Numbered from the stretch's first letter, positions 4,336-51,499 are shown. The stretch: DNA of 64,000 nt from a virus (IMGVR_UViG_3300035099_000047:32001-96000); one strand, 5' to 3'. The notes: generated by a model not told the origin, from the sequence alone. Program-made: numbers and translations.

Positions 4336-4897
4336 CTTTAATCCCCTTCTCTCCCACGTACTTGTCCTCTTCCCAACCCGGGAACTTCAATTTACCTGAC
4401 TTAAACAAGGGTCGGAATATCTGAACAATTTCCTTTTCCCATCTTTTCATCATTTTTTCGTATGCTTTGAGATTAACAAGGGTCCCTTGACGACAAAGAT
4501 CCCGACAGCGATCCTGATGCTTGCGCCGTTGCAAATTGAGAAAATGTTGAAGTGAACAACAAGGGTCTCCTTCCCCACACAGTTCGTCTCCGAACATGCC
4601 CTCTTCTGCAGCCAGCTTCCAAGTCCCTTTCCGACACATGTCCGTAAACTCTTTACCTGCAGAACCTGACCACAACAACGTCCCCGGTAGCCACTTTTTT
4701 CCCTCAGCCACTAAGTAAATACGACACCTTTCTGCTTTAGCTATACCTTCACCCGGGTAAGGCTCAGCTGGCCGAATCGCCACATCCTTGCTGCCTATAC
4801 CTTCTCCGAAAGGGTGAAAAAGATCTATTGACTCAGCCATTTCCCGCACACCCGCCGCATGACCCACGTTAGACATTTCAAATCTCCCTTCCAACAT
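4328..4897 (-). CDS. hypothetical protein in the modification cluster
   Basis: 189 aa ORF overlapping both neighbours. Confidence 0.55.
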   Translation of the reverse strand: MLEGRFEMSNVGHAAGVREMAESIDLFHPFGEGIGSKDVAIRPAEPYPGEGIAKAERCRIYLVAEGKKWLPGTLLWSGSAGKEFTDMCRKGTWKLAAEEGMFGDELCGEGDPCCSLQHFLNLQRRKHQDRCRDLCRQGTLVNLKAYEKMMKRWEKEIVQIFRPLFKSGKLKFPGWEEDKYVGEKGIKVE

Positions 4898-36460: not shown

Positions 36461-38155
36461 TTAGAACATGAGTACGTGATTAAACTGGAAAACCCAATCA
36501 CTCGACTTACTCAATGCTCCAAATGTTCTCCTCGCCACCAATGTGTTGTCTCCACACACCAATCCAGCCTCGCTGATAGCGAACCCATTAGCTTCCCCTT
36601 CCAAAATATAAGCAGTGATCAACACACTGGTTGTGCTTGGGAATTCAAACATAGTAATAGGTTTCACTAGCACTACAGTCTCCAATGCTGCATCATTCAC
36701 TGTAGGATTTACAGGTTCGCTAGGATCACCTGGTACATGGCCACCTGTGTTATGCACGAATACCCCAGCTGTCAACGCGAAATTGTGATATTTTTCCACT
36801 TCCAAACAGTACACATCTTCCACATAATCCAAGCGTTTCACTGAAACCACAGTGTGGTTATAAAAAGCTAAAGCTTCACTGGTTGGAGAGGAATGGACCA
36901 TTTTGCCAATTGATTTCAAATACCGAGATCCTTCATCCCATTGAGTGACCGGATCGAACCCATTTTCTATCAGCAGCTTTCTAGCAACAGCAATTTTTCC
37001 CACCATCTGCTTCCGGCGGGAGTCATTGTCTGAATTCACAAACAGAATGGTCTTTTTAGCAGCCATTCTGCTAGCTTTTGATTTACCCCGATTCATGTGG
37101 AAATTGGGATCTTTATTCAGTCTGGTCATCGTCAAAGAGGACCTTTTAGACCGTATCATCCTGGCGTTACGCGCTTGTGGGTTGTCAGAATTGTTAATCC
37201 ACTCGTTGTAATCTGAGATATTTTTAACACTAATTTCTTTCATTTTATCATAGTTTTCACTCCAACTTTTCAAGTTGCGAGCAGTAAGAATGCTGGAGGC
37301 ATTGTTCCTATGGAACGCCCTGTGAAAACACCTAAACAAAACGGTCAAATTCGTAGGATCGTTGTTCCTGTGGTCAAAGTTTTTGTGGTGCACCACAAGT
37401 TTGCAACCTTCACAACCATCGACATGGTTAGAAGTGCATCTAGCTCCCAATTCATGAACCACCATCCAATGAGTAGTCAACCATTTCATGGTTGCGGGAG
37501 ACAAAAAGACTTCGTACCCTTTGTTATCTTCCCTATACAACGGCATGAGACTGTCACCTGGGGACAGTGACTCTGCATTTTTATAAAAACCATCCCTCAT
37601 CATCCACGGGTGGTTTAACGTGCATCGAACCACCTTAATGTTCCCTAGATAATCTCGAATCGTGACTTCCACTAAATTAGCACCCTTTTGAGTTAAAAAA
37701 GGTCTTTTGGCTTTACCAGGCACGACTCTACCTCGTTTTACATCATAGGAATACACCCAAAACTCGTCGCGATAGTTTAGGAGTTCCTCAAAAGACCTCT
37801 CTGTACCATCCAACAATGATACTTTTGTATCTTTGGTAAAGCAACCAAAAGCCATTCGGCTCACGAACTTGGTTGCAGTGCTATCCCCCACAACTAAGTG
37901 ACTCAGTTGCGTCTTGAGCCGAGTCAAGGCCAAGTTGTTGCCTTTGTAAACTCGTTCAATTTTGCCATCTGGCACCTCAACTCGAACCCTCTCCAATTGC
38001 CCGGTTTCAGCATTGATACGAGTGACTTGTTGAGGCCGGTACGATCCTGCCCGTCGCACCAATATGGTTTGTTCACCATGGACTTCACTCACTACGGACT
38101 TGGTAAACATGGGATTGCTCCTTATTACAGATTGGTTAGCTTGTTGTTTGGTCAA
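36461..38155 (-). CDS. baseplate/tail-fibre attachment protein (P2 gpH N-terminal-like) containing an intein
   Basis: Extein motifs RMAFG|TGG and EANGFAISEAGL...LVARRTF. Confidence 0.65.
   Translation of the reverse strand: MTKQQANQSVIRSNPMFTKSVVSEVHGEQTILVRRAGSYRPQQVTRINAETGQLERVRVEVPDGKIERVYKGNNLALTRLKTQLSHLVVGDSTATKFVSRMAFGCFTKDTKVSLLDGTERSFEELLNYRDEFWVYSYDVKRGRVVPGKAKRPFLTQKGANLVEVTIRDYLGNIKVVRCTLNHPWMMRDGFYKNAESLSPGDSLMPLYREDNKGYEVFLSPATMKWLTTHWMVVHELGARCTSNHVDGCEGCKLVVHHKNFDHRNNDPTNLTVLFRCFHRAFHRNNASSILTARNLKSWSENYDKMKEISVKNISDYNEWINNSDNPQARNARMIRSKRSSLTMTRLNKDPNFHMNRGKSKASRMAAKKTILFVNSDNDSRRKQMVGKIAVARKLLIENGFDPVTQWDEGSRYLKSIGKMVHSSPTSEALAFYNHTVVSVKRLDYVEDVYCLEVEKYHNFALTAGVFVHNTGGHVPGDPSEPVNPTVNDAALETVVLVKPITMFEFPSTTSVLITAYILEGEANGFAISEAGLVCGDNTLVARRTFGALSKSSDWVFQFNHVLMF
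36749..37843 (-). mobile_element. intein with HNH homing endonuclease (365 aa)
   Basis: CFTKDTKVSLLDG...CTLNHPW...VHHKNFDHRNNDPTNL...HNFALTAGVFVHN|T. Confidence 0.9.
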
Positions 38156-38164
38156 TATGGTTTG

Positions 38165-40705
38165 TTAAGGCCCAACCGGGGTAGTTGGGCATGGTTGTTT
38201 ACCATCTTCTCTGACTAACGCCGTCACGGGTATGTTCTGAGACCAACGATGTACGGGTACCCCTGCTGGGTCGAGTTTGATTTCCGACCCCGGCAAATAG
38301 CTACACAGTTGGCAATTCTTGCCTCTCTGTTGAGACGGATCCTTGACGTACTTGGCTATGGTCTGCTTGGGCAGTTCGCTGAGGATGTGCAAGGCACTTT
38401 CAATCCAGAGACTTTTCAGCACACACTGAGCCGGATCTGGAGTATGGATGTCTCGACCAGATGCTAAACTGTCCTCGCGGCAATTCCCCACCACCACCCC
38501 AGCAGATAAAACAAAGTTGTGACAAGGATGGTCTATAACCACACAGTACACGTCTTGCTTTTCTTCCAACCATTTAACAGAAATCACTCTGTGGTTTACA
38601 AGGTGTCCATCCTTTCCCTTCTTGCTTTCATAAAAAGGCATCAAGCTATCCCCACACTTCAATTCACAAGATTTGGTCATAGTTCCATCCGACATCATCC
38701 ATTCATGATCTGGAGTACACTTGACTTTTTCACCATTGTCCAACCCCACTTCCATCAAGGGCATGTTCTCCCTAGTTTTTCTAACCTCTCCCTGAGTAAC
38801 TATGAATTCTTTCCACCCTGGATGATAAGAGTAAAACCATTGTTTACCCAAACCTACCAATTCCGCAATTGGGTGGTTTGTCCCATCTACCATTTTGACT
38901 CCAGTATCCCCAGTAAAACAACCAGAACCGCACACCCAACGGACGGGACATTTCATACAATCCTTGCGCTGATAACCACGGTTATCCAACCAAGGAGCTC
39001 TCAATTCCTCATCAATACCAGTAGACAAATCCCCGATTTTGGAATATCCCTCCCGATGGCATGCAAAAATCATACCTTTGCCGTTGACCGAAAGATAACC
39101 TCGACTCGCACCACAATTTCGTACAAACACTCCAGCAGTCAAGGCGAAATTGTGACAATCGTGTTGAATTTGAACGCAATACGTATCGTGGAGCCCTGTT
39201 ACAAATTTGACTGATATCACTTTGTGGTTGGATTGAACCACTTTACAGTATTTGGTATGGGTTACTTGACTCCCTTTGAAACAATCTGTACTCTCCTCAA
39301 GAACTTTCCCATACCATGGCATCAAGCTGTCACCCGGTTGCAATTGATCAGCCCGCTTGTAAGTGCCATCCCTCATCATCCATAGATGATCAGGAGTGCA
39401 CTTGACCCTTTGACCATTGTCCAATTCCACCTCCAACAAAGACCTACCTTCCCCGGTTTTCACTCCAACACCTTTGGTAGATATGATCTCTCCGTTACAA
39501 ACACTGTAAAACCAGTGCTCTTGACCTACAATGGACTCCAAAGTCCTCTCAGTACCATCCAACAAAGACACTTTGGTATCTCCTGAGAAGCACTCACTTG
39601 CACTATGGATACTCCAAAACATGCGTTCAATGCTCTTGTGTACGTTGTGCCAACGTGGAGTCTTATCTGCCTTAGCCCGTTCTATCCACCAATCAGCGGC
39701 ATCGAGGTATTCATCCTCAAATCGGTCCCATGCCTCCTCTTCCTTGATTTCCAATCCCCGGTTTTTCAAAGGACTATCATGGCTCAGGGCCACTGGTTCC
39801 ACGCTTACCCAATTTGCACAACCGTCATCGCACAACTGATTCAAGTAATCAAGCCGCTCCCGGATAGTTTCCACACTGTTAGCTGGAAACGTGCTGCGCA
39901 GGGTGTTGCTGCTAACTAGCCTGGTGCCCTTGAGCAGCTTCAAACCCTTCATTACCTTTTGCCAGCTGCTTCGTCCATTTGCATAGCGGCGCATATGGTC
40001 TTGGCTCTTTTGAGTCCCGTCTATGGAACAGATCAAGCTGTATCCATGATCATTTAGAAAAGCAACTCGTTCGGGAGTGAACAAGGTAGTATTTGTGGTA
40101 ACATGCAGTCCAGGCCTCTGCTTACCCAATCCCAAACAATTTTCACAAACGCTTCCCCCTACCCGACCAGATCCCCCGCAGGACCGACAAACCTGGCCGA
40201 ATTGCTTAGCCAAATGTTCCACATACTCTGTCACTTTGAGTATCAATGGCCAATTGGTCAAGGGCTCCCCCCCAAAGAACCCAACAGTAAAATGCTGGCG
40301 AACGTTTACCAAATCATCAATGGCCCGTTTGGCCATCTCAAAGGTCATTACATCTCCATCGTAGCCCTTATGTGGGTACATGCTCACAAAGCAATACTTG
40401 CACGACAAATTGCACGCATGTGTTGCTTCAAGGACCAAATTGCCCACCTTTGGTTCTGGTGCCCCTCCGGCACGAAACACTGGCTTATAACGTGCCATTA
40501 CATATGGGCTGGGTGGGTGATCCCTGAGTTGCAAGTAATCCTCAAACGAATCCACCTGCAACAATGCCAAACTGTTGCTATCAAATGCAAACTGTTTGTG
40601 TCGCTTTGGAATCTCAATGTAGATAAGCTCCGGTCGTTCATCCTCACGCAAGTCCTGGCAAGGTACACGGGGATTCAACAACCCGTTCAAAATGCGGTAA
40701 GCCAT
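38165..40705 (-). CDS. radical SAM/SPASM peptide-maturase-like enzyme with two inteins
   Basis: CNLSCKYC, FFGGEPL, SIDG; after splicing SPASM motifs CGASRG..FACH..CMKCPVRWVCGSG|C. Confidence 0.9.
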   Translation of the reverse strand: MAYRILNGLLNPRVPCQDLREDERPELIYIEIPKRHKQFAFDSNSLALLQVDSFEDYLQLRDHPPSPYVMARYKPVFRAGGAPEPKVGNLVLEATHACNLSCKYCFVSMYPHKGYDGDVMTFEMAKRAIDDLVNVRQHFTVGFFGGEPLTNWPLILKVTEYVEHLAKQFGQVCRSCGGSGRVGGSVCENCLGLGKQRPGLHVTTNTTLFTPERVAFLNDHGYSLICSIDGTQKSQDHMRRYANGRSSWQKVMKGLKLLKGTRLVSSNTLRSTFPANSVETIRERLDYLNQLCDDGCANWVSVEPVALSHDSPLKNRGLEIKEEEAWDRFEDEYLDAADWWIERAKADKTPRWHNVHKSIERMFWSIHSASECFSGDTKVSLLDGTERTLESIVGQEHWFYSVCNGEIISTKGVGVKTGEGRSLLEVELDNGQRVKCTPDHLWMMRDGTYKRADQLQPGDSLMPWYGKVLEESTDCFKGSQVTHTKYCKVVQSNHKVISVKFVTGLHDTYCVQIQHDCHNFALTAGVFVRNCGASRGYLSVNGKGMIFACHREGYSKIGDLSTGIDEELRAPWLDNRGYQRKDCMKCPVRWVCGSGCFTGDTGVKMVDGTNHPIAELVGLGKQWFYSYHPGWKEFIVTQGEVRKTRENMPLMEVGLDNGEKVKCTPDHEWMMSDGTMTKSCELKCGDSLMPFYESKKGKDGHLVNHRVISVKWLEEKQDVYCVVIDHPCHNFVLSAGVVVGNCREDSLASGRDIHTPDPAQCVLKSLWIESALHILSELPKQTIAKYVKDPSQQRGKNCQLCSYLPGSEIKLDPAGVPVHRWSQNIPVTALVREDGKQPCPTTPVGP
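38483..38920 (-). mobile_element. mini-intein (146 aa)
   Basis: CFTGDTGVKMVDG...CTPDHEW...HNFVLSAGVVVGN|C. Confidence 0.85.
39116..39592 (-). mobile_element. mini-intein (159 aa)
   Basis: CFSGDTKVSLLDG...CTPDHLW...HNFALTAGVFVRN|C. Confidence 0.85.
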
Positions 40706-40709
40706 TTTT

Positions 40710-41060
40710 TCAGTCTCCGGTCAATCCTATAGAAATCTCTTCTAAACGTGTAGCCAACCATCCGATGGCCGACAGGTACAATCCATCGGCCAGGGCATAC
40801 TTCGTAACGGGCAACCAATAGTGCAAGGCCAAACCAACCCAGAACGAACAGCACATCATACAGAAGGACCGAGTGCGTTGAGCTACATACAAACTTATCA
40901 GCTGATCTTTTAATCGGGTCGATTTCCAACTTCCCACCCACAGAACGAGCCTGTCAATCACCCAAAGCACTAAATAGCGGACAGGGAACGCAAGACTTGA
41001 TCGCGAGAGTATGACGACAATCCCCAACCCGACGAGCGTTGAGCTAGTGAGATGATCCAT
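40710..41060 (-). CDS. DUF1360-like membrane protein
   Basis: Hydrophobic; CMMCCSFWVG motif. Confidence 0.5.
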   Translation of the reverse strand: MDHLTSSTLVGLGIVVILSRSSLAFPVRYLVLWVIDRLVLWVGSWKSTRLKDQLISLYVAQRTRSFCMMCCSFWVGLALHYWLPVTKYALADGLYLSAIGWLATRLEEISIGLTGD

Positions 41061-41311
41061 GGTTCTTTATGCTCCAAGGCTTCGGCCTTTTGACAACGCA
41101 GGCAATCATACATTCTAGCGGGTTCATGACCATACCGACTACAAAGAAATACTCGGCCTCCATCAGCCCGACAACAAGGTGATCTAGTGGTTCTACCCGT
41201 GTCAATACGATAGTTGCAATGGAATACCAGTTCCTTCAACCGGTTGCGCAACACTTCGTTTTGAGCAATGTTGAGCCCTGGCAACAGTTCTCGATTACGG
41301 TGAAGTCTCAT
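40970..41311 (-). CDS. small Cys-containing protein
   Basis: ATGA-coupled to the upstream gene; PCC, CLRC. Confidence 0.45.
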   Translation of the reverse strand: MRLHRNRELLPGLNIAQNEVLRNRLKELVFHCNYRIDTGRTTRSPCCRADGGRVFLCSRYGHEPARMYDCLRCQKAEALEHKEPWIISLAQRSSGWGLSSYSRDQVLRSLSAI

Positions 41312-43692
41312 GCCACTATCCCACTAGCGCACCCAACACCTTGACATTGGGATTCGCAAGGCACTGATTCACATACAGTTTCACAAGGTTGTTCCCTTCC
41401 TTCTTCACAACACAACTGGCAACAGAACTCGCAACCTCCCTGCTTATTGGCTACACAACCCGCTTCACAAATGGCCTCACAACCACCTTGGGCTTCGCAG
41501 GCCGCTTGGCACTGAGTTTGACATTTGTCAGTACAGCTAGCGGTGCAACCACTTGTGCAACTGGCTTTGCAAACGCATTCACAACACACTTGACAGCCTC
41601 CCGGTGCACCGGTGCAGCTGGTCTGACAACCAGCAGTGGCTGTGCATTTTATTTGGCACCCAGCCACCATGCAAGGTTCCTGGCAAATAGCCATACACTC
41701 ACTTTGGCACCCTCCAGTGCATCCACTGGTGCAACCTACGATAGCACAAAGCGTTTGACACCCACTGCTTTGACATGGGTTTTGACATATCGTCATGCAA
41801 CCTTCCATGCACTGGCCACCCTGACAACCCACTGTACAATTCTTCTGACAATCGGTTTCGCAGCTTTGACATCCCTCACTCTCGCACTTTGATGCCTCAC
41901 ACCAACTTTCACAATGACCTCCTTCGCAAGATCCCTTCTCGCAAAAATCTTCACAACCCCCTTCACAACTGCCTTTTTCACACCAGCTTTCGCAATAAAT
42001 TGCACATTGAAACTGACAACCACCTACCTCACAATCGTTTTCACAGCTACCAGCTTCACATTGCAGTTCACACCCTGCAGCTTCGCAACCTTCTTCACAC
42101 CCTATCTCGCAACCCTCTTCGCATCCACACACACACGAATCTTGGCAGCATGCTTCGCAATCAGTTTCACAATTGTTTTGGCAAGCACTCTGGCAGTTGA
42201 ACTCACAATCGTTTTGACATCCAGTCGTGCAGAAATCTTCACAATTGCCTTCACAACTGCCTGTACAACCATATTCGCAATCACCTTCACAACCATTTTC
42301 GCAAAATGTTTGACAATTAGCTCCCTCACAAGTATCCTGGCAATAATTCTGACATTTGTTCTCACAACTGCCTGCACACGCTTCTTGGCAGACGAACTCG
42401 CAATCCGTTTGACAGTGAATCTCACACATCAACTCACAATTTGATTCGCAGGAGCCCAAACCTTGACACTTGTCTTCGCAACCCTTCTCACAAAAGCTTT
42501 CACAAGTGACTTGACACCCTTGAGTGCACGTGGTGATGGTTTCCAACCGGTCGCTAGCCCCGGTCAACAACTCCCGAAACCTGCTCCGCATGGAAACGCC
42601 ACTGTAAGAATCCGTTACTTCAATAGCAACTTCTCTCTTGGACATCAACTGCAACTTGCGAACCGGTATCACATGAATGGGTCGCTCGTCGGCCAAGTAC
42701 TGGTCCAACACAGCCATAGCCTCAGCAAAAGGCAAAGCCTCTCCAATACCTGGATACTTTGTTTCAACCTCCTTCAGATAGGAATTGGTTTGGTGGTAAC
42801 AAGTACGAACCCCGGACAACAAAGCATTTGTAGCATGTGCCTTTTCTACTAACACACTCAATAACGAGTTGGTTGAATGATACTGAGTGCTTTCACCCTT
42901 CAAATCAGCATCGGTGCTATGAGAAACCCTTGTAGAATATAACAGGGCATCTGTCGTGTGACTTTCAGTGATTTCACGAGCACTAAGAAAAGCATCTGTT
43001 GTGTGAGATCTGGTTGACTTTTTAAGGTAAGCATCTGTGGTATGTGTTTTGGTTACAGCTAATCCTTTGATATAAGCATCGGTATTATGGCCAATAGTGA
43101 TAACGTCTGGACTGATCACCTCATACTCTATTGCAACCTGGAGGTCATCATATTGTGTTTCCAGTGTTACTTCTGTTGTACCGCTCCACGTCGGATCAGT
43201 TACACAGTTGACCCAATTGCGAATCGAAAGGCCAATGCGATTCCACGCACCACCAGGGATTTCAGAAGGAAGGGGCTTCAGCCCTCCCCCTCCAATGGTC
43301 CACCAACCATATGTTCGGCCATAAATATCTAAACCAACAAGAAGTTGCTGTGCTTCATCTTCCGTATCCTGCCAAAGGTAAACATTTCCTACCCTATAAA
43401 GTTTAGACGAACAAAGTGGGAAGTCGTCAGCAATCGGAGCCCTCACAGCCAACCCAACAACACTGATTGCAGTGACAACACTATTTTTTGGGATACCAAA
43501 CAACTGGCTCCATGTCCCCAATACACGCCACCCTTCGGAGCCAGTTATATTACCCCGACCTTCCAAATCCATGTGCGTGGTAAGGGACCCTTGCGAGAGA
43601 TTACCATTGTACGACCACCCGCCCCTGGCAGTTGGCTCCCAACTCTCAGGGTCGTTTTCCCAACGCCACCATTTGGTTATTCTAATAGCCAC
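41308..43692 (-). CDS. virion-module protein with HxTDA repeats and a C-terminal Cx3C tract of about 400 aa
   Basis: HTTDAYL-type repeats; gpI-like RPIHV motif; CQ/CE units from about 42528 to the end. Confidence 0.8.
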   Translation of the reverse strand: MAIRITKWWRWENDPESWEPTARGGWSYNGNLSQGSLTTHMDLEGRGNITGSEGWRVLGTWSQLFGIPKNSVVTAISVVGLAVRAPIADDFPLCSSKLYRVGNVYLWQDTEDEAQQLLVGLDIYGRTYGWWTIGGGGLKPLPSEIPGGAWNRIGLSIRNWVNCVTDPTWSGTTEVTLETQYDDLQVAIEYEVISPDVITIGHNTDAYIKGLAVTKTHTTDAYLKKSTRSHTTDAFLSAREITESHTTDALLYSTRVSHSTDADLKGESTQYHSTNSLLSVLVEKAHATNALLSGVRTCYHQTNSYLKEVETKYPGIGEALPFAEAMAVLDQYLADERPIHVIPVRKLQLMSKREVAIEVTDSYSGVSMRSRFRELLTGASDRLETITTCTQGCQVTCESFCEKGCEDKCQGLGSCESNCELMCEIHCQTDCEFVCQEACAGSCENKCQNYCQDTCEGANCQTFCENGCEGDCEYGCTGSCEGNCEDFCTTGCQNDCEFNCQSACQNNCETDCEACCQDSCVCGCEEGCEIGCEEGCEAAGCELQCEAGSCENDCEVGGCQFQCAIYCESWCEKGSCEGGCEDFCEKGSCEGGHCESWCEASKCESEGCQSCETDCQKNCTVGCQGGQCMEGCMTICQNPCQSSGCQTLCAIVGCTSGCTGGCQSECMAICQEPCMVAGCQIKCTATAGCQTSCTGAPGGCQVCCECVCKASCTSGCTASCTDKCQTQCQAACEAQGGCEAICEAGCVANKQGGCEFCCQLCCEEGREQPCETVCESVPCESQCQGVGCASGIVA

Positions 43693-43706
43693 TTACACCA
43701 TCCCCA

Positions 43707-45221
43707 CTAAAAATTAGGGAACACAGCCACTCTTGCGGCTTTGTAAGTGTGTGTACCATTTTTATTCAAACTGTAATCCCCCATTTCGTTAGGTTCGTGC
43801 TTGTACAATTCGGAGACTGAATACTTACCATCTGAACGGTACTTCAACTTCTTATTGATCCCAAACACGGTACCATGCATTTTGTGAAAAGCCAAAGCAT
43901 CAGAGGTGAAAAATCGTATCAAATCATCTGTCCATCCATCATAATAGCTACTCCCCAACAGCTGATTGATAAGGGTCAGATATTCTGTATTGGTAGTGAC
44001 TACATTGTACAGGGCCTTCAATCCGGCTATCAACTCCTCGGTTTCCCCAAATTGTTCCTGTAACATACCCACAATCTGTTTCAAAATAGGCCCCCCTGAT
44101 ACATCCCCAGAAGCCTCCGCATCCTTTATGCGAATAATCAAAGGTAACAAATCATACAACTGGACCCGGGGCCAACGGCCTAGATAGGCTGCAGTGCGAT
44201 GGTACCTGCGTACCTCCCCCTTCAAGTCCGCATCGGCGGTATGCTTTTTCAATTGAAACTTTTGCAAAAGGGCGTCAGCACTGTGAACCTTAGTAATACT
44301 CCAAACCAAATAGCTGCTTGAAAAATGATAATTGGTAACTTCGCCCTTCAAAACTGCATTTGTACAGTGTAATTTTCGACCACCTAATATCAAGGCATCA
44401 GTTGTATGCAATAGAGAAATGGTTTCAGTAGGTGATGCCCAACTCAACCGGCGTGGCATTGCCCAAAGATCAAAGCGCGTGGCTGGATTGTAAAGCGTCC
44501 AGATTTCCGCCGCCGAAAGGGCACGCCCGTAAACCCGCACGTCACGCACCAGACCTCGCCAGAACATCTCGTACGAGCCGTAGTTCAAGGCCCCGACGAA
44601 TCCGTAGTTGCTGGACCACGTATCCGTGGGCATTTGCGCGAGCGTCTTTGAGTTTTTCAACCGTCCGTCGACGTACAGCGACCAGGCGGAATTGTCGAGA
44701 ACGGCCGCAACGTGGTGCCAAACCCCGTCGTTATGCGCGCTCGTCGCAACCAGATTAGTGTCCCATACGCTTATGCCGAGAGCGCCCGGCGGCTGCCACC
44801 GGTCGGTGTTGCCAGCACCAATAATGACCGCGTAGTGTTGGGATGTTACCCCGTAAGAAAACGCCCCGCGGATGTACTCCGACGGACATTCCGTGTAGTT
44901 GACCCAGAGCGAAATCGTTCGCGGCGATGCCCCGAGGGGGAGGCGGGTATCGGGAAAGCGGAACTGATAACTGCCGTCGAATTCCGGCACGAAGCCAAAC
45001 GTGGGATCCGCGTGCCATTTTGCCACCTCCGGCACCATGCTTATGTCAACTGCCCTGCCGTGATTGTCATAAACAATCTCCGGCGCGACACTGCCCGTGC
45101 ATGCCGAGAGCGGCCACCAGGCAATAAGACTGCGTGATTGCAGCGATTCTTGCCGGACTTGCGGTATTCTTGGAGACAACAGGTTGGCGCGGGCCATTGG
45201 GCGGTCCGAGATGACTCCCAT
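43707..45221 (-). CDS. LamG/ConA-like domain + HxTDA repeats + baseplate gpI-like domain
   Basis: TISLWV, WHHVAAV, LYVDG, DVRVYGRALSAAEI; LYDLLPLIIRIKD. Confidence 0.75.
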   Translation of the reverse strand: MGVISDRPMARANLLSPRIPQVRQESLQSRSLIAWWPLSACTGSVAPEIVYDNHGRAVDISMVPEVAKWHADPTFGFVPEFDGSYQFRFPDTRLPLGASPRTISLWVNYTECPSEYIRGAFSYGVTSQHYAVIIGAGNTDRWQPPGALGISVWDTNLVATSAHNDGVWHHVAAVLDNSAWSLYVDGRLKNSKTLAQMPTDTWSSNYGFVGALNYGSYEMFWRGLVRDVRVYGRALSAAEIWTLYNPATRFDLWAMPRRLSWASPTETISLLHTTDALILGGRKLHCTNAVLKGEVTNYHFSSSYLVWSITKVHSADALLQKFQLKKHTADADLKGEVRRYHRTAAYLGRWPRVQLYDLLPLIIRIKDAEASGDVSGGPILKQIVGMLQEQFGETEELIAGLKALYNVVTTNTEYLTLINQLLGSSYYDGWTDDLIRFFTSDALAFHKMHGTVFGINKKLKYRSDGKYSVSELYKHEPNEMGDYSLNKNGTHTYKAARVAVFPNF

Positions 45222-45239
45222 CCATTCCTCCTACCAAAT

Positions 45240-45746
45240 TCAAACGACGTCTTCAGCCAGTGGTACCAAGGTAATGCGATGTGAATCGTCATTGCTTACC
45301 AAAGCCTGTCCCGACTTATTGATGACTACAGGGCAACCATAACGGGCAGGGGGACAAAACTCGAAGACCTCGGTTTGGACCACAGTAGCAGCATCTGCTG
45401 TGAGCACCAGGCAGCCAATAAGCAAAAGCTGTTGCTTCCATTCATCTTCTTCCCCAGCCTTGTAAGGGGAATCCACACCGGTGACTCCACCAGGAAAGGT
45501 TGTGTTATCCCACGAGGCTGCCCAATAAATCTCAATCACGTTGCCAGCCACTGGGGCAACAGCCAGGTTCAATTCGACAGTGACCGCCCAGCGCGGGGCG
45601 AACCGCCCGTTGGCATCCGCCAGATCGCCTTTCTGACCCATCCGCCCGGCCCCGTTGGCCAAGCCAGCCAGGGTGATCGCGTAGTCTCCTCCCGTGGCCT
45701 TCCAAACCTTTGCAGTTCCTTGTTTAACCAGTATTTCTGTAGACAT
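45240..45746 (-). CDS. putative virion structural protein
   Basis: Beta-rich 168 aa protein in the tail module. Confidence 0.55.
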   Translation of the reverse strand: MSTEILVKQGTAKVWKATGGDYAITLAGLANGAGRMGQKGDLADANGRFAPRWAVTVELNLAVAPVAGNVIEIYWAASWDNTTFPGGVTGVDSPYKAGEEDEWKQQLLLIGCLVLTADAATVVQTEVFEFCPPARYGCPVVINKSGQALVSNDDSHRITLVPLAEDVV

Positions 45747-45781
45747 AGCTCAAACCCAAGGGTTAAAAGTTGAAAGTTGGT

Positions 45782-46210
45782 TCACAAAGAAAGCTTGATA
45801 ATCCCGCTAGCACTCCACTGCAACACAAAGTTTTGGGCCTTCCGGCTCTTCACCATTCCAAAGCCTATGTGACCTATCAGAGGTGAGTCTGCTGGGGTGG
45901 TAACCAGCCGGTACAATACAGCATGAGCGGGGGACACAGTCACCACTGGCCAAATAACATCATCTGCGTCAAACACGCAAGTACCAGCAACTTTGTCCAA
46001 AGTAAAACTACCATTCCTCAACCGTACCCCTCCCGCTGTATAATTGGTACCTGTCACTTCATCGGTTACTATGTCCGACCAATAAACTTGGTTTTTGTAA
46101 TCTGGTATGTATTTGTCACTGAGCAGTGCACACTTGATTATGTTGTTGACCAGCGATATTTGACCATTGGCCATCGCTTTCAAATAATTCAAGAACAATC
46201 CGCAGGTCAT
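45782..46210 (-). CDS. putative tail/virion structural protein (start revised to ATG 46210)
   Basis: IKCALL, EVTGTNYTAGG, FDADDVIW motifs common in phage tail proteins. Confidence 0.6.
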   Translation of the reverse strand: MTCGLFLNYLKAMANGQISLVNNIIKCALLSDKYIPDYKNQVYWSDIVTDEVTGTNYTAGGVRLRNGSFTLDKVAGTCVFDADDVIWPVVTVSPAHAVLYRLVTTPADSPLIGHIGFGMVKSRKAQNFVLQWSASGIIKLSL

Positions 46211-46221
46211 AGCTTCCCCTT

Positions 46222-47370
46222 TCACACCTGTTGCTGTTGTTGGCATCGACCTTGACAACCATACTCACAGGCATTCTGACATTCGGTCTCACAAGCAGCT
46301 TGGCATCCTATAGCACAAGCTGTAGTGCAAGTGAGTTGTTGACCTGCTTGGCACTTTTGCTCACAGGCGTAAGCACATCCCGGTATTTGATTTCCTGATT
46401 GACATTTTTGTTCACATTTGGTAGTACAACCCCCTGTTTGAGCTCCCGTTTGACATGATTTTTCACATTGATTTTCACACGAAGTTTCACACGAAGCCTC
46501 ACACCCTCGACGAGGGACTTGATAACTAACTTGGCACACCGTGTTGCAACCAGGGGACTGTCGATGGCTTTGACAAGAAACCTGGCAAGATCTTACACAA
46601 CCTGGCACCTGCCCACTGGCCTCGCAATTAGATTGACAAACACTATCACATCCCAAAAATTGAAGCTTGGATTGGCATTTGGTTTCACATTGCCCCTGAC
46701 AACCCCCTTCGCAGTGGGTTTCACACCTAGCCGTGCAGTTACGTGCCTGATTACCTTGTTGACAACTGACTTCACAAATCTGTTGGCAATCGTATTCACA
46801 AGCTACTTGACATTTATCAGTACACCCCGGGGTTTGGTACCCTTGAGTACAACTCAATTCGCAACTTGTACCACAGCCTGCAGTTTGACTCCCTGATTGA
46901 CAAGTCACCTCACAAGTGTCAGAACAACCAGGGGTTTGACTGCCTTTTTGACAGGTGGTTTGACAAGTGTCTGAGCAGCCGACTGATTGACTCCCTGATT
47001 GGCAAGAAACTTGGCAACGGTCTTGGCAACCTGATTGGCAAGTTGTTTCACACTTCGTGGAGCACCCTTGAGCTTGGTGACCTGCTTGGCAATGAAGTTC
47101 ACACAGGGTCTGACACCCAGATTGACACACCAATTGACAATGAGATTCACAACTGCTTTGGCAAGTGACTTCGCAAGTGGTACCACATCCGGCTACCTGG
47201 TTCCCTGCTTGGCATACGTTTTCGCACAGGTTTTGACAATTAGCTTGGCAAGTCTGTTCGCACTTCGTTTGGCACCCCGCTTGACACCTCAATTCACAAG
47301 CTGAAGTGCAACCAGCGGCTTGATACCCAGCTTGGCAACCCACTTGGCAAGTTTCAGTGCAACCTGGCAT
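46222..47370 (-). CDS. Cys/Gln-rich Cx3C repeat protein (SCIFF/ranthipeptide-like)
   Basis: The whole 382 aa is GCxxxCExxCQxGxQ-type repeats; RBS AGGAG. Confidence 0.8.
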   Translation of the reverse strand: MPGCTETCQVGCQAGYQAAGCTSACELRCQAGCQTKCEQTCQANCQNLCENVCQAGNQVAGCGTTCEVTCQSSCESHCQLVCQSGCQTLCELHCQAGHQAQGCSTKCETTCQSGCQDRCQVSCQSGSQSVGCSDTCQTTCQKGSQTPGCSDTCEVTCQSGSQTAGCGTSCELSCTQGYQTPGCTDKCQVACEYDCQQICEVSCQQGNQARNCTARCETHCEGGCQGQCETKCQSKLQFLGCDSVCQSNCEASGQVPGCVRSCQVSCQSHRQSPGCNTVCQVSYQVPRRGCEASCETSCENQCEKSCQTGAQTGGCTTKCEQKCQSGNQIPGCAYACEQKCQAGQQLTCTTACAIGCQAACETECQNACEYGCQGRCQQQQQV

Positions 47371-47386
47371 TTTCAGCTCCTACCTT

Positions 47387-50300
47387 TTAGACAGAAGGCT
47401 GAGCGTAAACCTGACAACCTGCAACTTGACAGTTTAACTGACAACCAGTTGCTTCACAAGCAATCTGACATTGTAGTTGACACACAGCCTCGCAAACTGA
47501 TTGACACCGCTCGGAGCACCCAACCACTTGGGCTATAGGTTCACAACCAGATTGGCAACTGCCTCCCTGGCAAAGCGTAGTACAACCACTTACTTGATTC
47601 CAAGCTTCACAAGCAGTATGGCAATCGGTTTCTCTACGAGTTTCACAAGCTGCAGCTTGACAAGTGAGTTCACAAAGCGCCTGGCAATCATATTGACAGA
47701 CAATTTTACATGGAATGTCGCCAGTTCCACTCTCCAAACCCCCAACTTGACAAGCTACTTGACATTGGCTTATGCAATCCCTAAACTGCTTCCATGTTTC
47801 ACAATAGTTTACACAAGAGAACTGGTTTTGAGTCTGACAAGTCACAACTTGACAAGAACCCTGATAAGAGGTGAGGCAGCCAGTGTAGTCAGTTTGAGAT
47901 TGGCTCTGACAAGTTCCACTTTGACACACGGGTTGGCACCAGGATTGACAAGTTGTTTCACAAGGCTCTCCTGTAGGATATTGTGCAACCCACAAACTCC
48001 CTCCATATTGATAGTACGTTTGACAATGTTTCTGACAAGTTGTTTGGCAGTCCAGTTGACAGCTGCCCATGCACTCACCTACTTGGGCCTCCCCTTGACA
48101 AAACCTTTGACATACATTTTCACATTCATACTGGCAATCAGTCATACAAGTAGTTTCACAACTTGTACTAACACAACTTGAGTATTGGCTCAGGGTCTGG
48201 CAAGGAGCCATTTGGCACTTGGTCTGGCAAGTCCGAGAACATCCCAGTTGGGTTCGAGTTTCACAAGAATTAGCTTGACAATTATATTGACAACTTTGCT
48301 GACAACGTGAACCGCAAGGCGAAACTTGAACATCACCACAACCCAATGCTGCCCAAAGTTCCTGACAATCGGATTCACAATGGGTTTCACAATAAGTGGT
48401 ACACGGACCTTCGTAATGAGTTTGGCAATCATCTTGACAGTGGTATTCACAATGGGAAGCGCAACCCGTTTCGCATTCAGTTTCACACGAGGCTTGGCAT
48501 TTAGTGGTGCACCCCGTGGTTTTGGGGGTTTGATACCGAACTTCTAATGTCAAGTTATTGTATCCTATGCGGGCGTGCCCACCAGTCTGGCTCAAATGGA
48601 ACAAGCTTTGTAGCATAAATTCCACTGAATCGGTAGCTCCCCCTAACCCTTCAGAAATCCCGTGGATGCTTCCGGGATTCATGTAAAGCCAATCATTTTC
48701 TACTCCAAAGACCCTCCTACCCCACCACAAAATTGATGGAATAGCTGTATTACAATTCACTCCGGCTGCCCCATATTGAACAAAATCCTGAACTCCTACG
48801 TTATCCCATATCAAGCATCGAGTATTCATGCCAATAAATCGAACCCCTACCACCGTGGCATTGTCTGGTATACCAAATATCTCCTTCCAAGAGCCTACCA
48901 ATCTCCAGGTAATTGTAGTCTCAAATGGCATGCGGTATGGTTTGTCATCCCTGTACAATTCACTGTAAATGTAGCCAGAGGGGTCCCAACCCCCAATACG
49001 GGTACTCAGTTCCCCAGCGAGATACCATTTCCCGGATCCACTGGTTTCCCTAGGATCAGTTGTAAAATTCCAGGAACGCTCCGCTCGCAATGTAATCTTG
49101 GGTATATCCGCTTGATTAGCTGAGGTACAACCAGTAGTGCAATCAGAATGGCAACCTACCGTACAATCTGTAGTACATCCACCAGTACAACTTAGCTGAC
49201 AAGTACCGCCCTCACAAGTCTGAGTACCTGCTGTGCAACCACCAGTACATCCACCAGTACACCAGCTAGTACACCCACTTGTGCAAGGGTAATCCAAGTG
49301 CTGAATCTGGCAACCAGTAGTGCAAGCTTCCTGACAAATCAATTGGCAAGTGGTCTCGCATATCGTGGGCTCCAACATATGGGTAGTCACTGACCATTGT
49401 TCTGCTATTTGGTCCCCCAACTTCTTGCGGCCTACTCGTTTACTCAACAGCAAATAGAACACCTGACTGCGATGGGGTATTTTCAATGAGTTGTGTGCAT
49501 AGACATACAGATGGGGTACCAACGGGCTCCAACCAATTAGCTGCTCCCCCGTAGGGGCATATCGGTAGTCCCGATCGTACAACATCAAGTGGGTAATCTC
49601 ACCCAAATTCACATCCGGAGCGCTGAATACAATCTGACCGTAATTGCGAAATGCACTAACGATGGTGCCTGGCACGCTGTTCGGATCTATACCTGCTTCA
49701 ACTAAGAAGTCCAGGGCTTCATCCAAACTCACCCGGGCCCAAGCATTATGGGGTTCCCGATGATAACCACTTGCAGTCTTGGGCTCATTTACTGGGAGTT
49801 CTCCATACCAACCGCAAAAGCTGCGACTCATAGCCACAAAGGTACCACTAGTGCTACTGCCTGGATGCCAGCTAGTGGTAAAGTTAACAGTTGGACTGGT
49901 ACCAGAAATGAAATCCACCTCTTGCGATGAAGGACTAAAAGTCAAGGGTGGATAGTCATACCACAAGGGCATCACGGTATAGTGGCCCGGTGGCACAACC
50001 ATATTTGCCAAGCCTTCTCTGTTCGTAACCCCCCAGTAAGCAACAGGATGACCATTGGAATCTTCCCCATAAATCACCACCTCAACATTGGCTACCTGAG
50101 CTCCGGTCATGACCACTGAAGGGGAGGCATGTGGATCAGAGGTACTTGGAGGGGTAGAATGAGGTAACTCCATTGTCAGGTTGCAAGGACCATAAGTCGT
50201 GGTAATCGTTTGGCTGATTGTTTGACAAGTTTCAGCCGTGGTCAGGCACCCCTTGGTCTCATCTGGGTTTGGGCTACCCCACATGCCTTGATAACCAGTT

Positions 50301-51499
50301 GGCGGAGATCCGCATTCTGCTGCACTAGAACAAGTGCCCCCTGGTGGAGTGCAACCAGATAGTTGAGCGGGGGTTTGGCAGGCTAATTCACAAGCGTCCT
50401 GACAAGAGTACTGAATGCTGGTTTGGCAATGGGCTTGACAGTAACCCTTGCAAGTTTCCTCATAACTTTGACAAGTACCTTGACAGTGTTGCTGACACTG
50501 CTGCCGACAGGAACTTTGACAAGAGCTTTGGCAGGTATCCTGACAATAACTTTGACATGGGTCTTCGCAACCCTGTTCACAAGCCTCTTGGCAAAAGAAC
50601 ATGCAAGCGTTTTGACATTTATGTTCACACCGAGCTTGGCATACTGGTTCACAGGAGCTTTTGCAACTTAATTCGCACAAAGCAGCGCATTTGGTCTGAC
50701 AACTTAGCTGACATGCTCCAGTGCAAGTAAGAGTGAGTGATTCATCATCTGCTATGAGATTGGATGGTTCTTCGTCGAACAAAGCAACCATTCTGCTACC
50801 ATCCGCCCCATCGCAGGTTTCCTTAACCCAGTCGGGGTAGTCTTCAGTGCATATCGGTACCGGCGGCAACACCTGAATTGGCACCACCTCTTGCAAATCG
50901 TGAACCAAAGACAATGCATCTGGATAGCTAAGCTGACCAGGCACCAGCCCGGAATGGTTTGTACATCGTAGATCAACAGGACCCTCCCATGGCAACACAG
51001 ACTCTAACACTGCCCCCATACGGAGGCCATATGGAATACTGCTAGTAAACAACACTCGAGCAGCACGGTAAGGGTGGCTTAGGGACTGACTGGCCGAATA
51101 ATCCACCGTTTCATTCAAACTACCTTTGTACAACTCCACTGGGTTGTAATTACCCAGTCCCTTCAACTTCATCATCCTGATCCAGCTTAACACCAATCCC
51201 TTGATCTTGTAGCTGTTCACCAACTCCTTGGCATACTCCCTTTGGTGGAACAGAGGTAGTTCCTGGGGGCTCTCACTACCCAATGCCTTGGTCAACAAGG
51301 CCAATATCAGAGAGCTAGTGGATTCCAAATTGATCAATCCCCGCAGACCTTCGATCAAGCCTGCAGTGGAATCTATTTGTTCTTGGATCGCAGCCAGAAT
51401 CTGCTGCAAGATAGGGCCACCGGGGAGATCGCCAGAGGCATCAGAGTCCTTCTGGCGTAGAACCAGGGGTAGCAGATCATATGCACCGATCTTGGTCAT
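47387..51499 (-). CDS. baseplate gpI-like protein fused to three Cx3C tracts and beta-sandwich domains
   Basis: YDLLPLVLRQKD...YKIKG N-terminus; follows the baseplate J gene. Confidence 0.8.
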   Translation of the reverse strand: MTKIGAYDLLPLVLRQKDSDASGDLPGGPILQQILAAIQEQIDSTAGLIEGLRGLINLESTSSLILALLTKALGSESPQELPLFHQREYAKELVNSYKIKGLVLSWIRMMKLKGLGNYNPVELYKGSLNETVDYSASQSLSHPYRAARVLFTSSIPYGLRMGAVLESVLPWEGPVDLRCTNHSGLVPGQLSYPDALSLVHDLQEVVPIQVLPPVPICTEDYPDWVKETCDGADGSRMVALFDEEPSNLIADDESLTLTCTGACQLSCQTKCAALCELSCKSSCEPVCQARCEHKCQNACMFFCQEACEQGCEDPCQSYCQDTCQSSCQSSCRQQCQQHCQGTCQSYEETCKGYCQAHCQTSIQYSCQDACELACQTPAQLSGCTPPGGTCSSAAECGSPPTGYQGMWGSPNPDETKGCLTTAETCQTISQTITTTYGPCNLTMELPHSTPPSTSDPHASPSVVMTGAQVANVEVVIYGEDSNGHPVAYWGVTNREGLANMVVPPGHYTVMPLWYDYPPLTFSPSSQEVDFISGTSPTVNFTTSWHPGSSTSGTFVAMSRSFCGWYGELPVNEPKTASGYHREPHNAWARVSLDEALDFLVEAGIDPNSVPGTIVSAFRNYGQIVFSAPDVNLGEITHLMLYDRDYRYAPTGEQLIGWSPLVPHLYVYAHNSLKIPHRSQVFYLLLSKRVGRKKLGDQIAEQWSVTTHMLEPTICETTCQLICQEACTTGCQIQHLDYPCTSGCTSWCTGGCTGGCTAGTQTCEGGTCQLSCTGGCTTDCTVGCHSDCTTGCTSANQADIPKITLRAERSWNFTTDPRETSGSGKWYLAGELSTRIGGWDPSGYIYSELYRDDKPYRMPFETTITWRLVGSWKEIFGIPDNATVVGVRFIGMNTRCLIWDNVGVQDFVQYGAAGVNCNTAIPSILWWGRRVFGVENDWLYMNPGSIHGISEGLGGATDSVEFMLQSLFHLSQTGGHARIGYNNLTLEVRYQTPKTTGCTTKCQASCETECETGCASHCEYHCQDDCQTHYEGPCTTYCETHCESDCQELWAALGCGDVQVSPCGSRCQQSCQYNCQANSCETRTQLGCSRTCQTKCQMAPCQTLSQYSSCVSTSCETTCMTDCQYECENVCQRFCQGEAQVGECMGSCQLDCQTTCQKHCQTYYQYGGSLWVAQYPTGEPCETTCQSWCQPVCQSGTCQSQSQTDYTGCLTSYQGSCQVVTCQTQNQFSCVNYCETWKQFRDCISQCQVACQVGGLESGTGDIPCKIVCQYDCQALCELTCQAAACETRRETDCHTACEAWNQVSGCTTLCQGGSCQSGCEPIAQVVGCSERCQSVCEAVCQLQCQIACEATGCQLNCQVAGCQVYAQPSV

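Follow-up and report, generated by a model that had tools for sequence, protein, structure and literature searches.

Cysteine tracts in phage baseplate proteins are candidate substrates of a CteB-like radical SAM enzyme encoded in the same tail operon

Why would one phage tail operon encode three proteins with a total of 303 cysteines, all from the minus strand, together with a radical SAM/SPASM enzyme? The question arises from a viral sequence of 64,000 nucleotides (IMGVR_UViG_3300035099_000047:32001-96000), the whole stretch that was analyzed and hereafter the window. The original prediction was that the phage installs many thioether bridges in its structural proteins, so that its fibres would be rigid or withstand proteases, or would form a surface shield. 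Our comparison of the window with related loci suggests that the phage probably does cross-link its own tail proteins.

A tail operon with three cysteine-tract genes

The best explanation is that this is a late operon for tail genes in a large, uncultured phage of the myovirus type. The genes that concern us here, from upstream to downstream, are:

51509..53518, minus strand: baseplate J/wedge protein (phrog_219, E 3.8e-40)
47387..51499, minus strand: P0004, 1370 aa; gpI-like N-terminal domain, then three C-[E/Q]-x-x tract regions; 126 Cys
46222..47370, minus strand: P0003, 382 aa; tract throughout and nothing else; 75 Cys
45782..46258, minus strand: 158-aa protein with no assigned function, inside the operon (phrog_644, E 2.5e-22)
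45240..45746, minus strand: 168-aa protein inside the operon, with no family match in Pfam/PHROG-type profile comparison
43707..45221, minus strand: P0005, 504 aa; LamG/ConA-like lectin domain (Laminin_G_3, E 2.5e-21), HTTDA-type repeats and a gpI-like N-subdomain at the C-terminus; no tract
41308..43692, minus strand: P0002, 794 aa; N-terminal domain, HTTDA-type repeats, gpI-like C-subdomain, then one tract; 102 Cys
40970..41311, minus strand: small Cys-containing protein, 113 aa
40710..41060, minus strand: small hydrophobic protein
38165..40705, minus strand: P0001, CteB-like radical SAM/SPASM enzyme, 846 aa encoded, 541 aa without its two mini-inteins
36461..38155, minus strand: P0096, 564 aa, a phrog_5417-type protein split by an HNH-bearing intein

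The three Cx3C-rich ORFs are present where the original prediction placed them, and the CxxxC unit that it quoted corresponds to residues 20-58 of P0003. Cysteine spacing is mostly in strict C-x-x-x-C register in all three proteins, and Glu or Gln directly follows Cys in 70% of their tract units. Consecutive cysteines exactly 4 residues apart number 64 in P0002, 59 in P0003 and 82 in P0004, far above the maximum of 18-20 such pairs obtained from 2000 shuffles of each protein. Recent DNA tandem repeats are not the basis of the tracts, as only 12-nt arrays of 2-4 copies are present. In P0004 the tract regions span residues 259-374, 714-791 and 997-1362 (nt 50378-50725, 49127-49360 and 47414-48511). 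The single tract of P0002 extends over 400 residues (389-788; nt 41329-42528) and holds 99 of the 102 cysteines. P0003 is divided into blocks with 5-11 Cys each (9-11 in the longest unbroken runs), mostly separated by 8-residue linkers of the Q-x-G-x-Q-x-x-G type, and its sequence matches tracts in L012, L014, L020, L023 and L025.

As originally described, the tract genes start directly downstream of the baseplate J gene, which is 41-51% identical to the gene preceding the tract genes in L007, L020, L023 and L025. P0004, the first of them, thus occupies the gpI position. Its N-terminus matches both the C-terminus of P0005 (39% identity, E 2e-33) and an L007 gene that has PF09684 on record (E 2e-23), and it is matched by the gpI-tract proteins of L007, L023 and L025. 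When compared with PF09684 (Tail_P2_I) itself, P0005 gives a weak score of 17.8 bits (E 0.0033), which is under the cut-off of 20.6 bits, and P0004 gives no direct match. The claim that two tract genes are fused to gpI-like sequence stands in full for P0004, which carries a complete gpI-like N-terminus. In P0002, gpI-like sequence is limited to the C-terminal part of the domain, around an RPIHV motif and preceding the tract; the matching N-terminal part ends the upstream gene, P0005. Domain homology and synteny indicate that P0002, P0003 and P0004 are probably virion tail/baseplate-fibre proteins.

Between the last tract gene and the enzyme gene lie two small ORFs. The 113-aa protein has no family match in profile comparisons; it is 41-43% identical to ORFs of L012 and L025, has a homologue in L090, is conserved just upstream of the enzyme gene in the closest relatives, and is possibly a helper. 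The hydrophobic protein has homologues in L012 and L025, and because only the C-terminal ~50 residues are conserved, its true start is probably internal. By eye, and unaligned, it resembles a 51-aa gene at the equivalent position in L090. The L090 orthologue of P0096 is an intein-free protein of 185 aa encoded directly 3' of the enzyme gene.

Conservation of tract residues

Aligning P0002 with its L090 orthologue showed that 95 of 99 cysteines (96%) are kept, as opposed to 94 of 218 other residues (43%). At the Glu/Gln sites, 76 of 90 (84%) remain Glu or Gln, 15 of them via an E/Q swap. Across nearly all tracts associated with the enzyme family, Glu or Gln follows Cys in 54-100% of units; in tracts beside other phage radical SAM lineages the figure is 0%. 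Conservation of Glu/Gln beside each Cys is what a role as side-chain acceptor would predict.

The radical SAM/SPASM enzyme and its inteins

The operon does encode the radical SAM/SPASM enzyme that had been proposed, with Radical_SAM and SPASM scores of 58.9 and 29.7 bits, respectively, for P0001. Both the CX3CX2C radical SAM motif and a 7-Cys SPASM domain are readable, and the three radical SAM cysteines and seven SPASM cysteines do not vary across the family alignment. Two mini-inteins (nt 39116-39592 and 38483-38920) are inserted at SPASM cysteines. They match the intein profile PF14890 in two stretches (91.1 bits; cut-off 35.8), and each starts with CF[ST]GDT and ends in a terminal N followed by C (+1 Cys), motifs by which both inserts are inteins predicted to be splicing-competent. 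After splicing in silico, P0001 aligned end to end with the family profile (593 bits), gapless at both junctions. A DnaJ-type CxxCxGxG zinc-finger insert (approximately nt 40121-40186) is a feature of the window's subclade.

Relationship to thioether-forming maturases

When clustered at 50% identity, the enzyme family yields a minimum of about 125 clusters. For the window enzyme and eight intein-free relatives, the top NCBIfam matches were always the SCIFF maturase, nif11-type, QhpD, PapB and ScfB-related models, all of which describe thioether formers. Among solved structures, the family profile matched CteB (5wgg) best (E 1.2e-80), with the next chain at about 3e-35. Structures were compared using an AlphaFold model of P0006, an intein-free orthologue 71% identical to the window enzyme (pLDDT 88.6). 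This model aligned with CteB over 400 residues (Z 34.4, rmsd 2.6 A), whereas the next fold reached Z 27.5. Model residues 24-472 superpose on CteB 1-450, including the recognition domain at CteB 1-86, and the next-best folds align only from model residue 80 onward. The predicted model thus supports an N-terminal peptide-recognition (RRE-like) domain in the family, in agreement with the earlier remark that the enzyme's N-terminus recalls the recognition element of SCIFF maturases. In a phylogenetic tree, the phage enzymes form one clade (support 0.999), sister to SCIFF maturases plus a SCIFF-like clade. The HMM and phylogeny check that had been proposed therefore places the enzyme among the thioether maturases of SCIFF, ranthipeptide and QhpD type and apart from unrelated SPASM families.

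The window enzyme and its eight intein-free relatives reach no curated NCBIfam cut-off. With the SCIFF maturase model TIGR03974 (cut-off 425), the window N-extein scored 107.7 bits and the relatives 133-208 bits, as compared with 576 bits for a true member, L120. Membership in three other families was considered and rejected: TIGR04115, the CXXX-repeat maturase (57 bits for the window enzyme and 102 for P0013, cut-off 350; a separate clade), QhpD TIGR03906 (97-179 bits, cut-off 453) and PapB NF047865 (101-195 bits, cut-off 340). The positive control for TIGR04115, L240, scored 485.6 bits and adjoins a C-E-x-x tract. Because no curated cut-off is reached and identity between the window-enzyme family and CteB is about 27%, transfer of CteB function is an extrapolation.

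Co-occurrence of tracts and enzyme in related loci

The original prediction had proposed asking whether Cx3C tracts and SPASM genes occur together. They do: each of the 34 related loci whose DNA extends far enough encodes a C-[E/Q]-x-x tract protein on the same strand, upstream of the enzyme. In 29 of these 34 distinct loci, the upstream ORF contains eight or more C-[E/Q/T]-x-x-C units; 4 have short tracts of 5-11 Cys, and the last, L034, has two tract proteins ~10 kb upstream of the enzyme. Co-occurrence spans myovirus- and siphovirus-type tails, and wherever DNA extent allowed checking, we found no real tract without a radical SAM neighbour. Approximately 75 loci with cellular homologues (<330 bits) have only SCIFF-like small peptides and no tract, the exception being L098, a MAG gene in which a SCIFF-like radical SAM/SPASM enzyme is fused to a 30-Cys tract. 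Of 36 distinct loci, 27 have a GT9 heptosyltransferase-like gene just downstream of the enzyme gene, and GT9-enzyme fusions occur in L030 and L036; because GT9 follows or fuses with the enzyme, modification in these relatives may be more complex.

Discussion

Taken together, these data make it likely that the CteB-like enzyme acts on the C-[E/Q]-x-x tracts: the enzyme-substrate link is well supported, because the two co-occur in 34 of 34 loci and the Cys and Glu/Gln residues are selectively conserved. As to the product, analogy with related enzymes points, somewhat less firmly, to a non-alpha thioether. We therefore lean towards an explanation in which the tracts of the baseplate-attached fibre proteins P0004 and P0002, and of the stand-alone P0003, would be substrates of the phage's own CteB-like enzyme and would become thioether-stapled.

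Stapling of this kind could proceed as follows. Both inteins would splice out, restoring the first and seventh-motif SPASM cysteines so that the auxiliary Fe-S clusters can form. The N-terminal recognition domain would engage the substrate protein near its tract, and a tract Cys would coordinate auxiliary cluster I at its open iron; in CteB, cluster I has an open site that binds the substrate Cys (PMC8326336). The 5'-deoxyadenosyl radical would then attack a nearby Glu, Gln or Thr, removing hydrogen from one of its side-chain carbons, and a thioether would form between the Cys sulfur and that carbon. In the ranthipeptide acceptors Asn, Thr and Asp, the linked carbon is adjacent to the functional group (PMC8326336), and Glu/Gln in the tracts likewise offer a candidate carbon beside one. 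Repetition of the cycle along the tract would produce a chain of small covalent rings and thereby give the tail fibre a rod or knot whose cross-links resist reduction; both this arrangement of rings and its mechanical role are what we infer for the modified tracts. To our knowledge, processive modification of ~100 Cys is without precedent. In vitro, CteB and Tte1186 formed only one thioether despite six Cys (PMC8326336).

The closest known system, by sequence profile, predicted fold and its sister position in the tree, is SCIFF with its maturases CteB and Tte1186 (TIGR03974; PDB 5wgg, 5why), which share with the window enzyme an N-terminal recognition domain, a radical SAM barrel and a 7-Cys SPASM domain. 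The SCIFF core also resembles the tracts, with a C-x-x-x-C run and Gln, Lys or Thr after Cys (L120 precursor). However, SCIFF substrates have ~45 residues, six Cys and a leader, whereas the window candidates have 382-1370 aa, 75-126 Cys and no N-terminal leader peptide; moreover, the window enzyme is phage-encoded, intein-split, equipped with the subclade's zinc-finger insert, and distant from SCIFF maturases in score (108-208 bits versus 425). QhpD introduces several Cys-to-Asp/Glu side-chain thioethers into a folded protein, the quinohemoprotein amine dehydrogenase gamma subunit QhpC (PMC8326336). QhpD ranks among the best HMM matches, and its target, as in the window, is a protein with Cys beside acidic or amide residues, but it makes three bonds in a small, non-viral enzyme subunit rather than possibly hundreds in fibre proteins. 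The CXXX-repeat system (TIGR04115 maturase, TIGR0411x targets), known from annotation only, likewise pairs Cys at every fourth residue with a radical SAM/SPASM enzyme, but its small partner proteins differ and its enzyme belongs to a separate clade. PapB moves along a peptide with repeated Cys-x3-Asp motifs to make the six small thioether rings of freyrasin. It is the nearest precedent for iterative rings on a periodic motif, although its acceptor Asp lies at +4, where the window tracts have the next Cys, their Glu/Gln being at +1.

Three other explanations deserve consideration. The enzyme might act on the tracts by other chemistry, forming alpha-carbon (sactionine) thioethers, oxidising Cys, in the manner of anSME-type enzymes, to formylglycine or dehydroalanine, or carrying out Cys-linked steps that prepare sites for GT9 glycosylation. 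Co-occurrence and the L098 fusion speak to the link and not to the reaction, the family passes no equivalog cut-off, and anSME, which acts on full-length proteins, ranks third in structural similarity (Z about 27, after CteB and ChlB). We nevertheless regard this as unlikely: anSME and sactisynthase models score far under the ranthipeptide/QhpD group, the Glu/Gln conserved by each Cys plays no part in making formylglycine or a sactionine, and the GT9 version, suggested by the frequent 3' or fused GT9 genes, must contend with a window that has no GT9 gene.

Less likely still, the tracts could be structural modules held by disulfides or by bound metal or Fe-S, the metal-binding form having been raised in the original prediction, with the enzyme's substrate elsewhere (a small peptide, a GT9 glycan step or host material). 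Very abundant, regularly spaced Cys with adjacent carboxylates could bind metals, free thiols would oxidise on extracellular virions, and a low-confidence single-sequence model of P0003 has helices with Cys in line. Yet this leaves unexplained both the L098 fusion and a co-occurrence that holds in 34 of 34 loci across two tail types; the frequent Glu-to-Gln swaps argue against carboxylate ligands; and in the window operon no small Cys-rich or SCIFF-like precursor was noticed among ORFs of >=60 aa, unlike the loci of cellular homologues. It seems very improbable that the tract proteins, P0003 above all, are multi-core precursors that are modified, cut into many SCIFF-like peptides and set free when the cell lyses, acting as signals or toxins and taking no part in the virion. 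The blocks of P0003, several of them the size of a SCIFF core, with their mostly regular linkers would suit such a role, cellular sister clades use small leader-plus-core peptides, and SCIFF-derived peptides have been tied to quorum sensing (PMC8326336). However, family profile comparisons of the operon genes revealed no protease or exporter gene, most tracts belong, in frame, to one polypeptide with a gpI-like baseplate domain, a tail-tip protein or a collagen-like fibre, and the tract genes are flanked by baseplate J on one side and the tail module's end on the other.

Thioether stapling of tail fibres by the phage's own enzyme, the explanation that we prefer, may extend beyond this phage. 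Tentatively, and with slightly more doubt than confidence, we propose that several tail types carry a baseplate-fibre polymer of tens to nearly 200 consecutive four-residue units, each closed by a Cys-to-Glu/Gln thioether from a dedicated CteB-like enzyme, and that at least three radical SAM lineages (CteB-like, PapB-like and TIGR04115) were apparently recruited independently. In the HK97 capsid, autocatalytic Lys-Asn isopeptide bonds form a chainmail. Those bonds, like the proposed tail stapling, are covalent cross-links that harden the virion particle, but stapling would use a dedicated radical enzyme, act on tail/baseplate proteins and proceed via cysteine. As the original prediction had supposed, we found no published description of radical SAM enzymes cross-linking phage tail tracts in the literature searched. 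If our explanation is correct, the tract proteins would be by far the largest RiPP-type substrates and the first virion structural proteins to be covalently stapled by an enzyme.

Cysteine tracts in the tail operon

The tail module lies within a 172-kb IMG/VR virus record (estimated completeness 78%), of which the window covers bases 32001-96000. It is of the contractile type and consists of the genes from 63871 to 36461 on the minus strand: those for the tube, a hub-like protein and the tape measure are followed by a gpW/gp25-like gene and baseplate J (51509-53518), and then by the tract and enzyme genes. Intergenic gaps are 9-35 nt, or replaced by small overlaps; thus, the module reads as one late operon. 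The tracts, runs of C-[E/Q]-x-x units with a Cys at every fourth residue, occur in three proteins, which are encoded upstream of the enzyme.

Tract proteins and enzyme of the window
47387-51499, minus strand: P0004, tract protein, 1370 aa, 126 Cys, 82 Cys pairs exactly 4 apart
46222-47370, minus strand: P0003, tract protein, 382 aa, 75 Cys, 59 Cys pairs exactly 4 apart
41308-43692, minus strand: P0002, tract protein, 794 aa, 102 Cys, 64 Cys pairs exactly 4 apart
38165-40705, minus strand: P0001, radical SAM core and SPASM domain with two mini-inteins

When the three tract proteins were shuffled (2000 times each), at most 20 Cys pairs fell 4 apart. Across the 212 C-x-x-x-C units of the window proteins, Cys is followed by Gln in 37%, Glu in 33% and Thr in 13%, and the remaining two positions are variable, mainly with small residues. 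No young tandem repeat was found in the tract DNA of the window. Searches of the tracts against Pfam and NCBIfam gave no usable match even at E 10, with the SCIFF model reaching 6.6 bits; PF27846 appears only as a 'faint' precomputed match to the giant protein of locus L012. A single-sequence AlphaFold model of P0003 was all helical, with segments coinciding with the Cys blocks, and was set aside as too uncertain for use (mean pLDDT 54).

The N-terminus of P0004 is a gpI-like domain, homologous to a gene of locus L007 with PF09684 on record and 39% identical (E 2e-33) to the C-terminus of P0005. P0005 is encoded upstream of P0002; its C-terminus gives a weak Tail_P2_I match, and it carries a LamG lectin domain as well. 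The original prediction described ORFs with Cys tracts, two of them fused to gpI-like sequence. The ORFs and tracts are as it stated, but the fusion in P0002 is only partial: the last part of the gpI-like domain precedes the tract, and the first part forms the end of P0005.

A phage enzyme family related to SCIFF maturases

The two mini-inteins of P0001 occupy residues 372-530 and 596-741 (window 39116-39592 and 38483-38920), and their +1 residues are both Cys, one the first of the SPASM domain and the other the last of the CX2CX5CX3C motif. Both lack the penultimate His, ending in R-N and G-N. Removal of both in silico leaves a protein of 541 aa whose alignment to the profile of the intein-free relatives is collinear and runs unbroken across both junctions (593 bits). 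With the inteins on Fe-S ligand cysteines, the enzyme would have a built-in need for splicing before it can work. Inteins recur in the family at differing SPASM cysteines (L034:9704-12346, where the intein precedes the Cys of an ACHRE motif; L029:9878-12313; and L025:9998-14461, an enzyme frame of 1488 aa), and cluster representatives reach 1443 aa. The gene that follows the enzyme in the window (36461-38155, phrog_5417-type) carries a third intein, with an HNH nuclease, related to those of P0001; L090 has an intein-free orthologue of 185 aa at the same position.

The radical SAM core also contains a CxxCxGxG-x(n)-CxxCxGxG insert, a DnaJ-type zinc finger (window 40121-40186, P0001 residues ~174-195), common only to the window enzyme and its four closest relatives, P0006-P0009. 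Immediately before the enzyme, loci of this zinc-finger subclade (window, L012, L025 and L090) share two small genes, whose conserved products are a Cys-containing protein of 113 aa and a ~50-aa hydrophobic protein.

The best-scoring NCBIfam models, for the window enzyme as for eight intein-free relatives, were always SCIFF maturase, nif11-type, QhpD, PapB and ScfB-related, none of them at cut-off; TIGR04115, the CXXX-repeat family, scored 57-102 bits against a cut-off of 350. Against solved structures, the family profile matched CteB (5wgg) with E 1.2e-80 and the next chain with 3e-35. The AlphaFold model of P0006 (pLDDT 88.6), an intein-free orthologue with 71% identity to the window enzyme, can be superposed on CteB over 400 residues (Z 34.4, rmsd 2.6 Å). 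Since this alignment begins at CteB residue 1, it includes the peptide-recognition domain; ChlB and anSME, the next matches (Z ~27), align only from residue 80 of the P0006 model.

A FastTree phylogeny of 130 sequences places the 35 members of the phage family in a single clade (support 0.999). SCIFF maturases form a separate one (support 1.0), which includes the enzyme of L120, above the TIGR03974 cut-off and adjoining a textbook SCIFF precursor. A SCIFF-like deltaproteobacterial/planctomycete clade, whose precursors have 5-13 Cys, groups with the SCIFF maturases (0.95), and the three clades fall together with support of 0.78. Beside the cellular sister-clade maturases, on deltaproteobacterial and planctomycete MAGs, lie leader-plus-core peptides with 5-13 Cys in a C-x-x-x-C register (L102:765-1022, L111:202-513, L096:2-223), which are intermediate between the 6-Cys SCIFF peptides and the phage tracts.

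When 1.84 billion representatives were searched, at least about 125 family clusters at 50% identity scored >=375 bits, many of them intein-bearing or fused. Scans of viral contigs with the enzyme's N-extein alone or P0003 alone gave no match; the family alignment was needed. Among GenBank phages, radical SAM matches were distant (~29% identity), tract matches were absent, and no cultured relative was found.

Co-occurrence of enzyme and tract

The enzyme family was recovered at 36 distinct loci from metagenome contigs, IMG/VR and MAGs, of which 34 are informative and two end too near the enzyme to be judged. Those from MAGs suggest hosts among the Acidobacteriota and Planctomycetota. At least one upstream same-strand ORF with 8 to 162 C-[E/Q/T]-x-x-C units is present at 29 of the 34. 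In four others (L030, L033, L035 and L036) the tracts are short, at 5-11 Cys, and show the same signature, and in L034 two tract proteins lie ~10 kb farther upstream on the same strand. In L030:2324-4150 and L035:117-1574, C-E-x-x tracts of 5-8 Cys stand immediately before collagen-like Gly-X-Y repeats, which suggests that a tract can serve as a cross-linked knot where a trimeric fibre starts. Tracts are carried by gpI-like proteins after baseplate J in L007, L023, L025 and the window, and in L010 by a large protein encoded two genes past the tape measure in a differently organised tail module, probably siphovirus-type. Thus, the association of enzyme and tract crosses tail types.

Comparison loci with a radical SAM gene scoring 148-330 bits (about 75) encode cellular SCIFF-like or PapB-like maturases. 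With the exception of L098, these loci lack a tract and have small Cys-rich peptides instead. In L098:40-2172, on an Acetofilamentum sp. MAG contig (DYON01000369.1), a single frame of 711 codons from stop to stop (~691 aa from the first Met) encodes three parts: a radical SAM/SPASM enzyme of SCIFF-like type (TIGR03974, 322 bits), a C-[E/Q/D]-x-x tract with ~30 Cys and, at the C-terminus, a hydrophobic segment. Such a fusion in nature argues strongly that enzyme and tract are functionally linked.

A reverse scan used a degenerate pattern to look for DNA that could encode six C-[E/Q]-x-x units in a row. Most matches were rejected as perfect 12-nt tandem repeats in an arbitrary frame or as giant-virus contigs. 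About a dozen were real tracts, nine of them with an adjoining radical SAM gene (CteB-like, PapB-like or, in L240, a true TIGR04115 member); at a tenth (L293) the radical SAM gene is truncated by the contig end. The remaining real tracts run off the end of the locus or contig, and the sample is too small for a formal reverse test. The pairing of tract and radical SAM enzyme is a recurrent, polyphyletic theme, in which the window enzyme is a separate family with its own tract signature. On other phage contigs, radical SAM/SPASM enzymes adjoin a different Cys repeat (L075:8763-9914, L078:14027-14713, L048:6742-7275, L087:7822-8436), in which a globular protein ends in 10-20 copies of a C-T-C-D-C-N-Y or C-P-C-N-C-N-F unit; PapB is the best model for the L075 and L087 enzymes.

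At 27 of the 36 distinct loci the next gene after the enzyme is of the GT9 kind (LPS heptosyltransferase-like); in L030 and L036 the two are fused.

GT9 genes
L007:11463-12503
L008:11550-12515
L009:6884-7681
L010:11359-12531
L011:8443-9408
about 22 further loci

The tract proteins of these phages may also be glycosylated. The zinc-finger subclade is without GT9, and none was found in the genome of the window virus (78% complete). Just upstream of the enzyme in L009, ORF 4042-5175 has a SPASM domain (TIGR04085, 38.7 bits) with no radical SAM domain detected, and may be a SPASM-only paralogue. L008:8820-9998 and L011:5936-6982 are similarly placed. By eye, ORFs ending just before the enzyme in L008, L009 and L011, in a frame other than that of the called upstream genes, share the same SPASM-like C-terminal Cys motif.

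Conservation of the tract unit

The P0002 tract was aligned position by position with its L090 orthologue. Cys is kept at 95 of 99 positions, Glu/Gln positions remain Glu or Gln at 76 of 90 (15 of these by E/Q exchange), and other residues are kept at 94 of 218. In nearly every tract of the enzyme family, Glu or Gln follows Cys in 54-100% of units, the exceptions being L028 (mostly Thr) and short fragments from L024 and L032 (33-50%). The frequency is 0% in Cys repeats (C-T-C-D-C-N-Y type and others) beside other phage radical SAM lineages. The interchangeability of Glu and Gln is compatible with a need for a side-chain methylene beside a carbonyl rather than for charge. The carbons linked in QhpD (Glu, Asp), PapB (Asp), NxxcB (Asn) and CteB (Thr) are of this same kind (PMC8326336).

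About a third of 42 tract starts have a strand-like alternating motif, D-x-L-x-[V/I]-x-[V/I]-T, directly before the first tract Cys.

Pre-tract strand motif
P0004 residues 254-261
P0002 residues 381-388
L007, L016, L023, L025, L029, L038, L295

At that frequency, D-x-L-x-[V/I]-x-[V/I]-T-C was not upheld as an equivalent of a leader and is retained as a lead; it could be a docking strand for the enzyme's recognition domain. A complex prediction of P0006 with a fragment of its own substrate (L090 residues 323-399), three 4Fe-4S clusters and SAM scored 0.00 and is evidence neither way.

Discussion

The tract is likely to be the enzyme's substrate, and it is somewhat more probable than not that the product is a non-alpha thioether. 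In the proposed sequence of events, both inteins would splice first, the enzyme would then install side-chain thioethers along the tracts, and the tracts would become covalently ringed rods or knots within baseplate fibres. In vitro, CteB forms a single thioether bond (PMC8326336). Literature searches on phages with radical SAM, ranthipeptide, CXXX repeat or TIGR04115 found no paper on such a system.

If this reading holds, radical SAM peptide chemistry would extend beyond small secreted peptides and one dehydrogenase subunit, and viruses would employ it as a construction tool, with a new virion post-translational modification and a new enzyme family of at least about 125 clusters (50% identity). 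The (Cys-Glu/Gln-x-x)n motif is simple, genetically encodable and unlimited in length, and would therefore be attractive for redox-stable cross-linked protein rods. The poorly understood SCIFF family would gain a tractable relative, one whose sequence already indicates the substrate and the likely acceptor residue.
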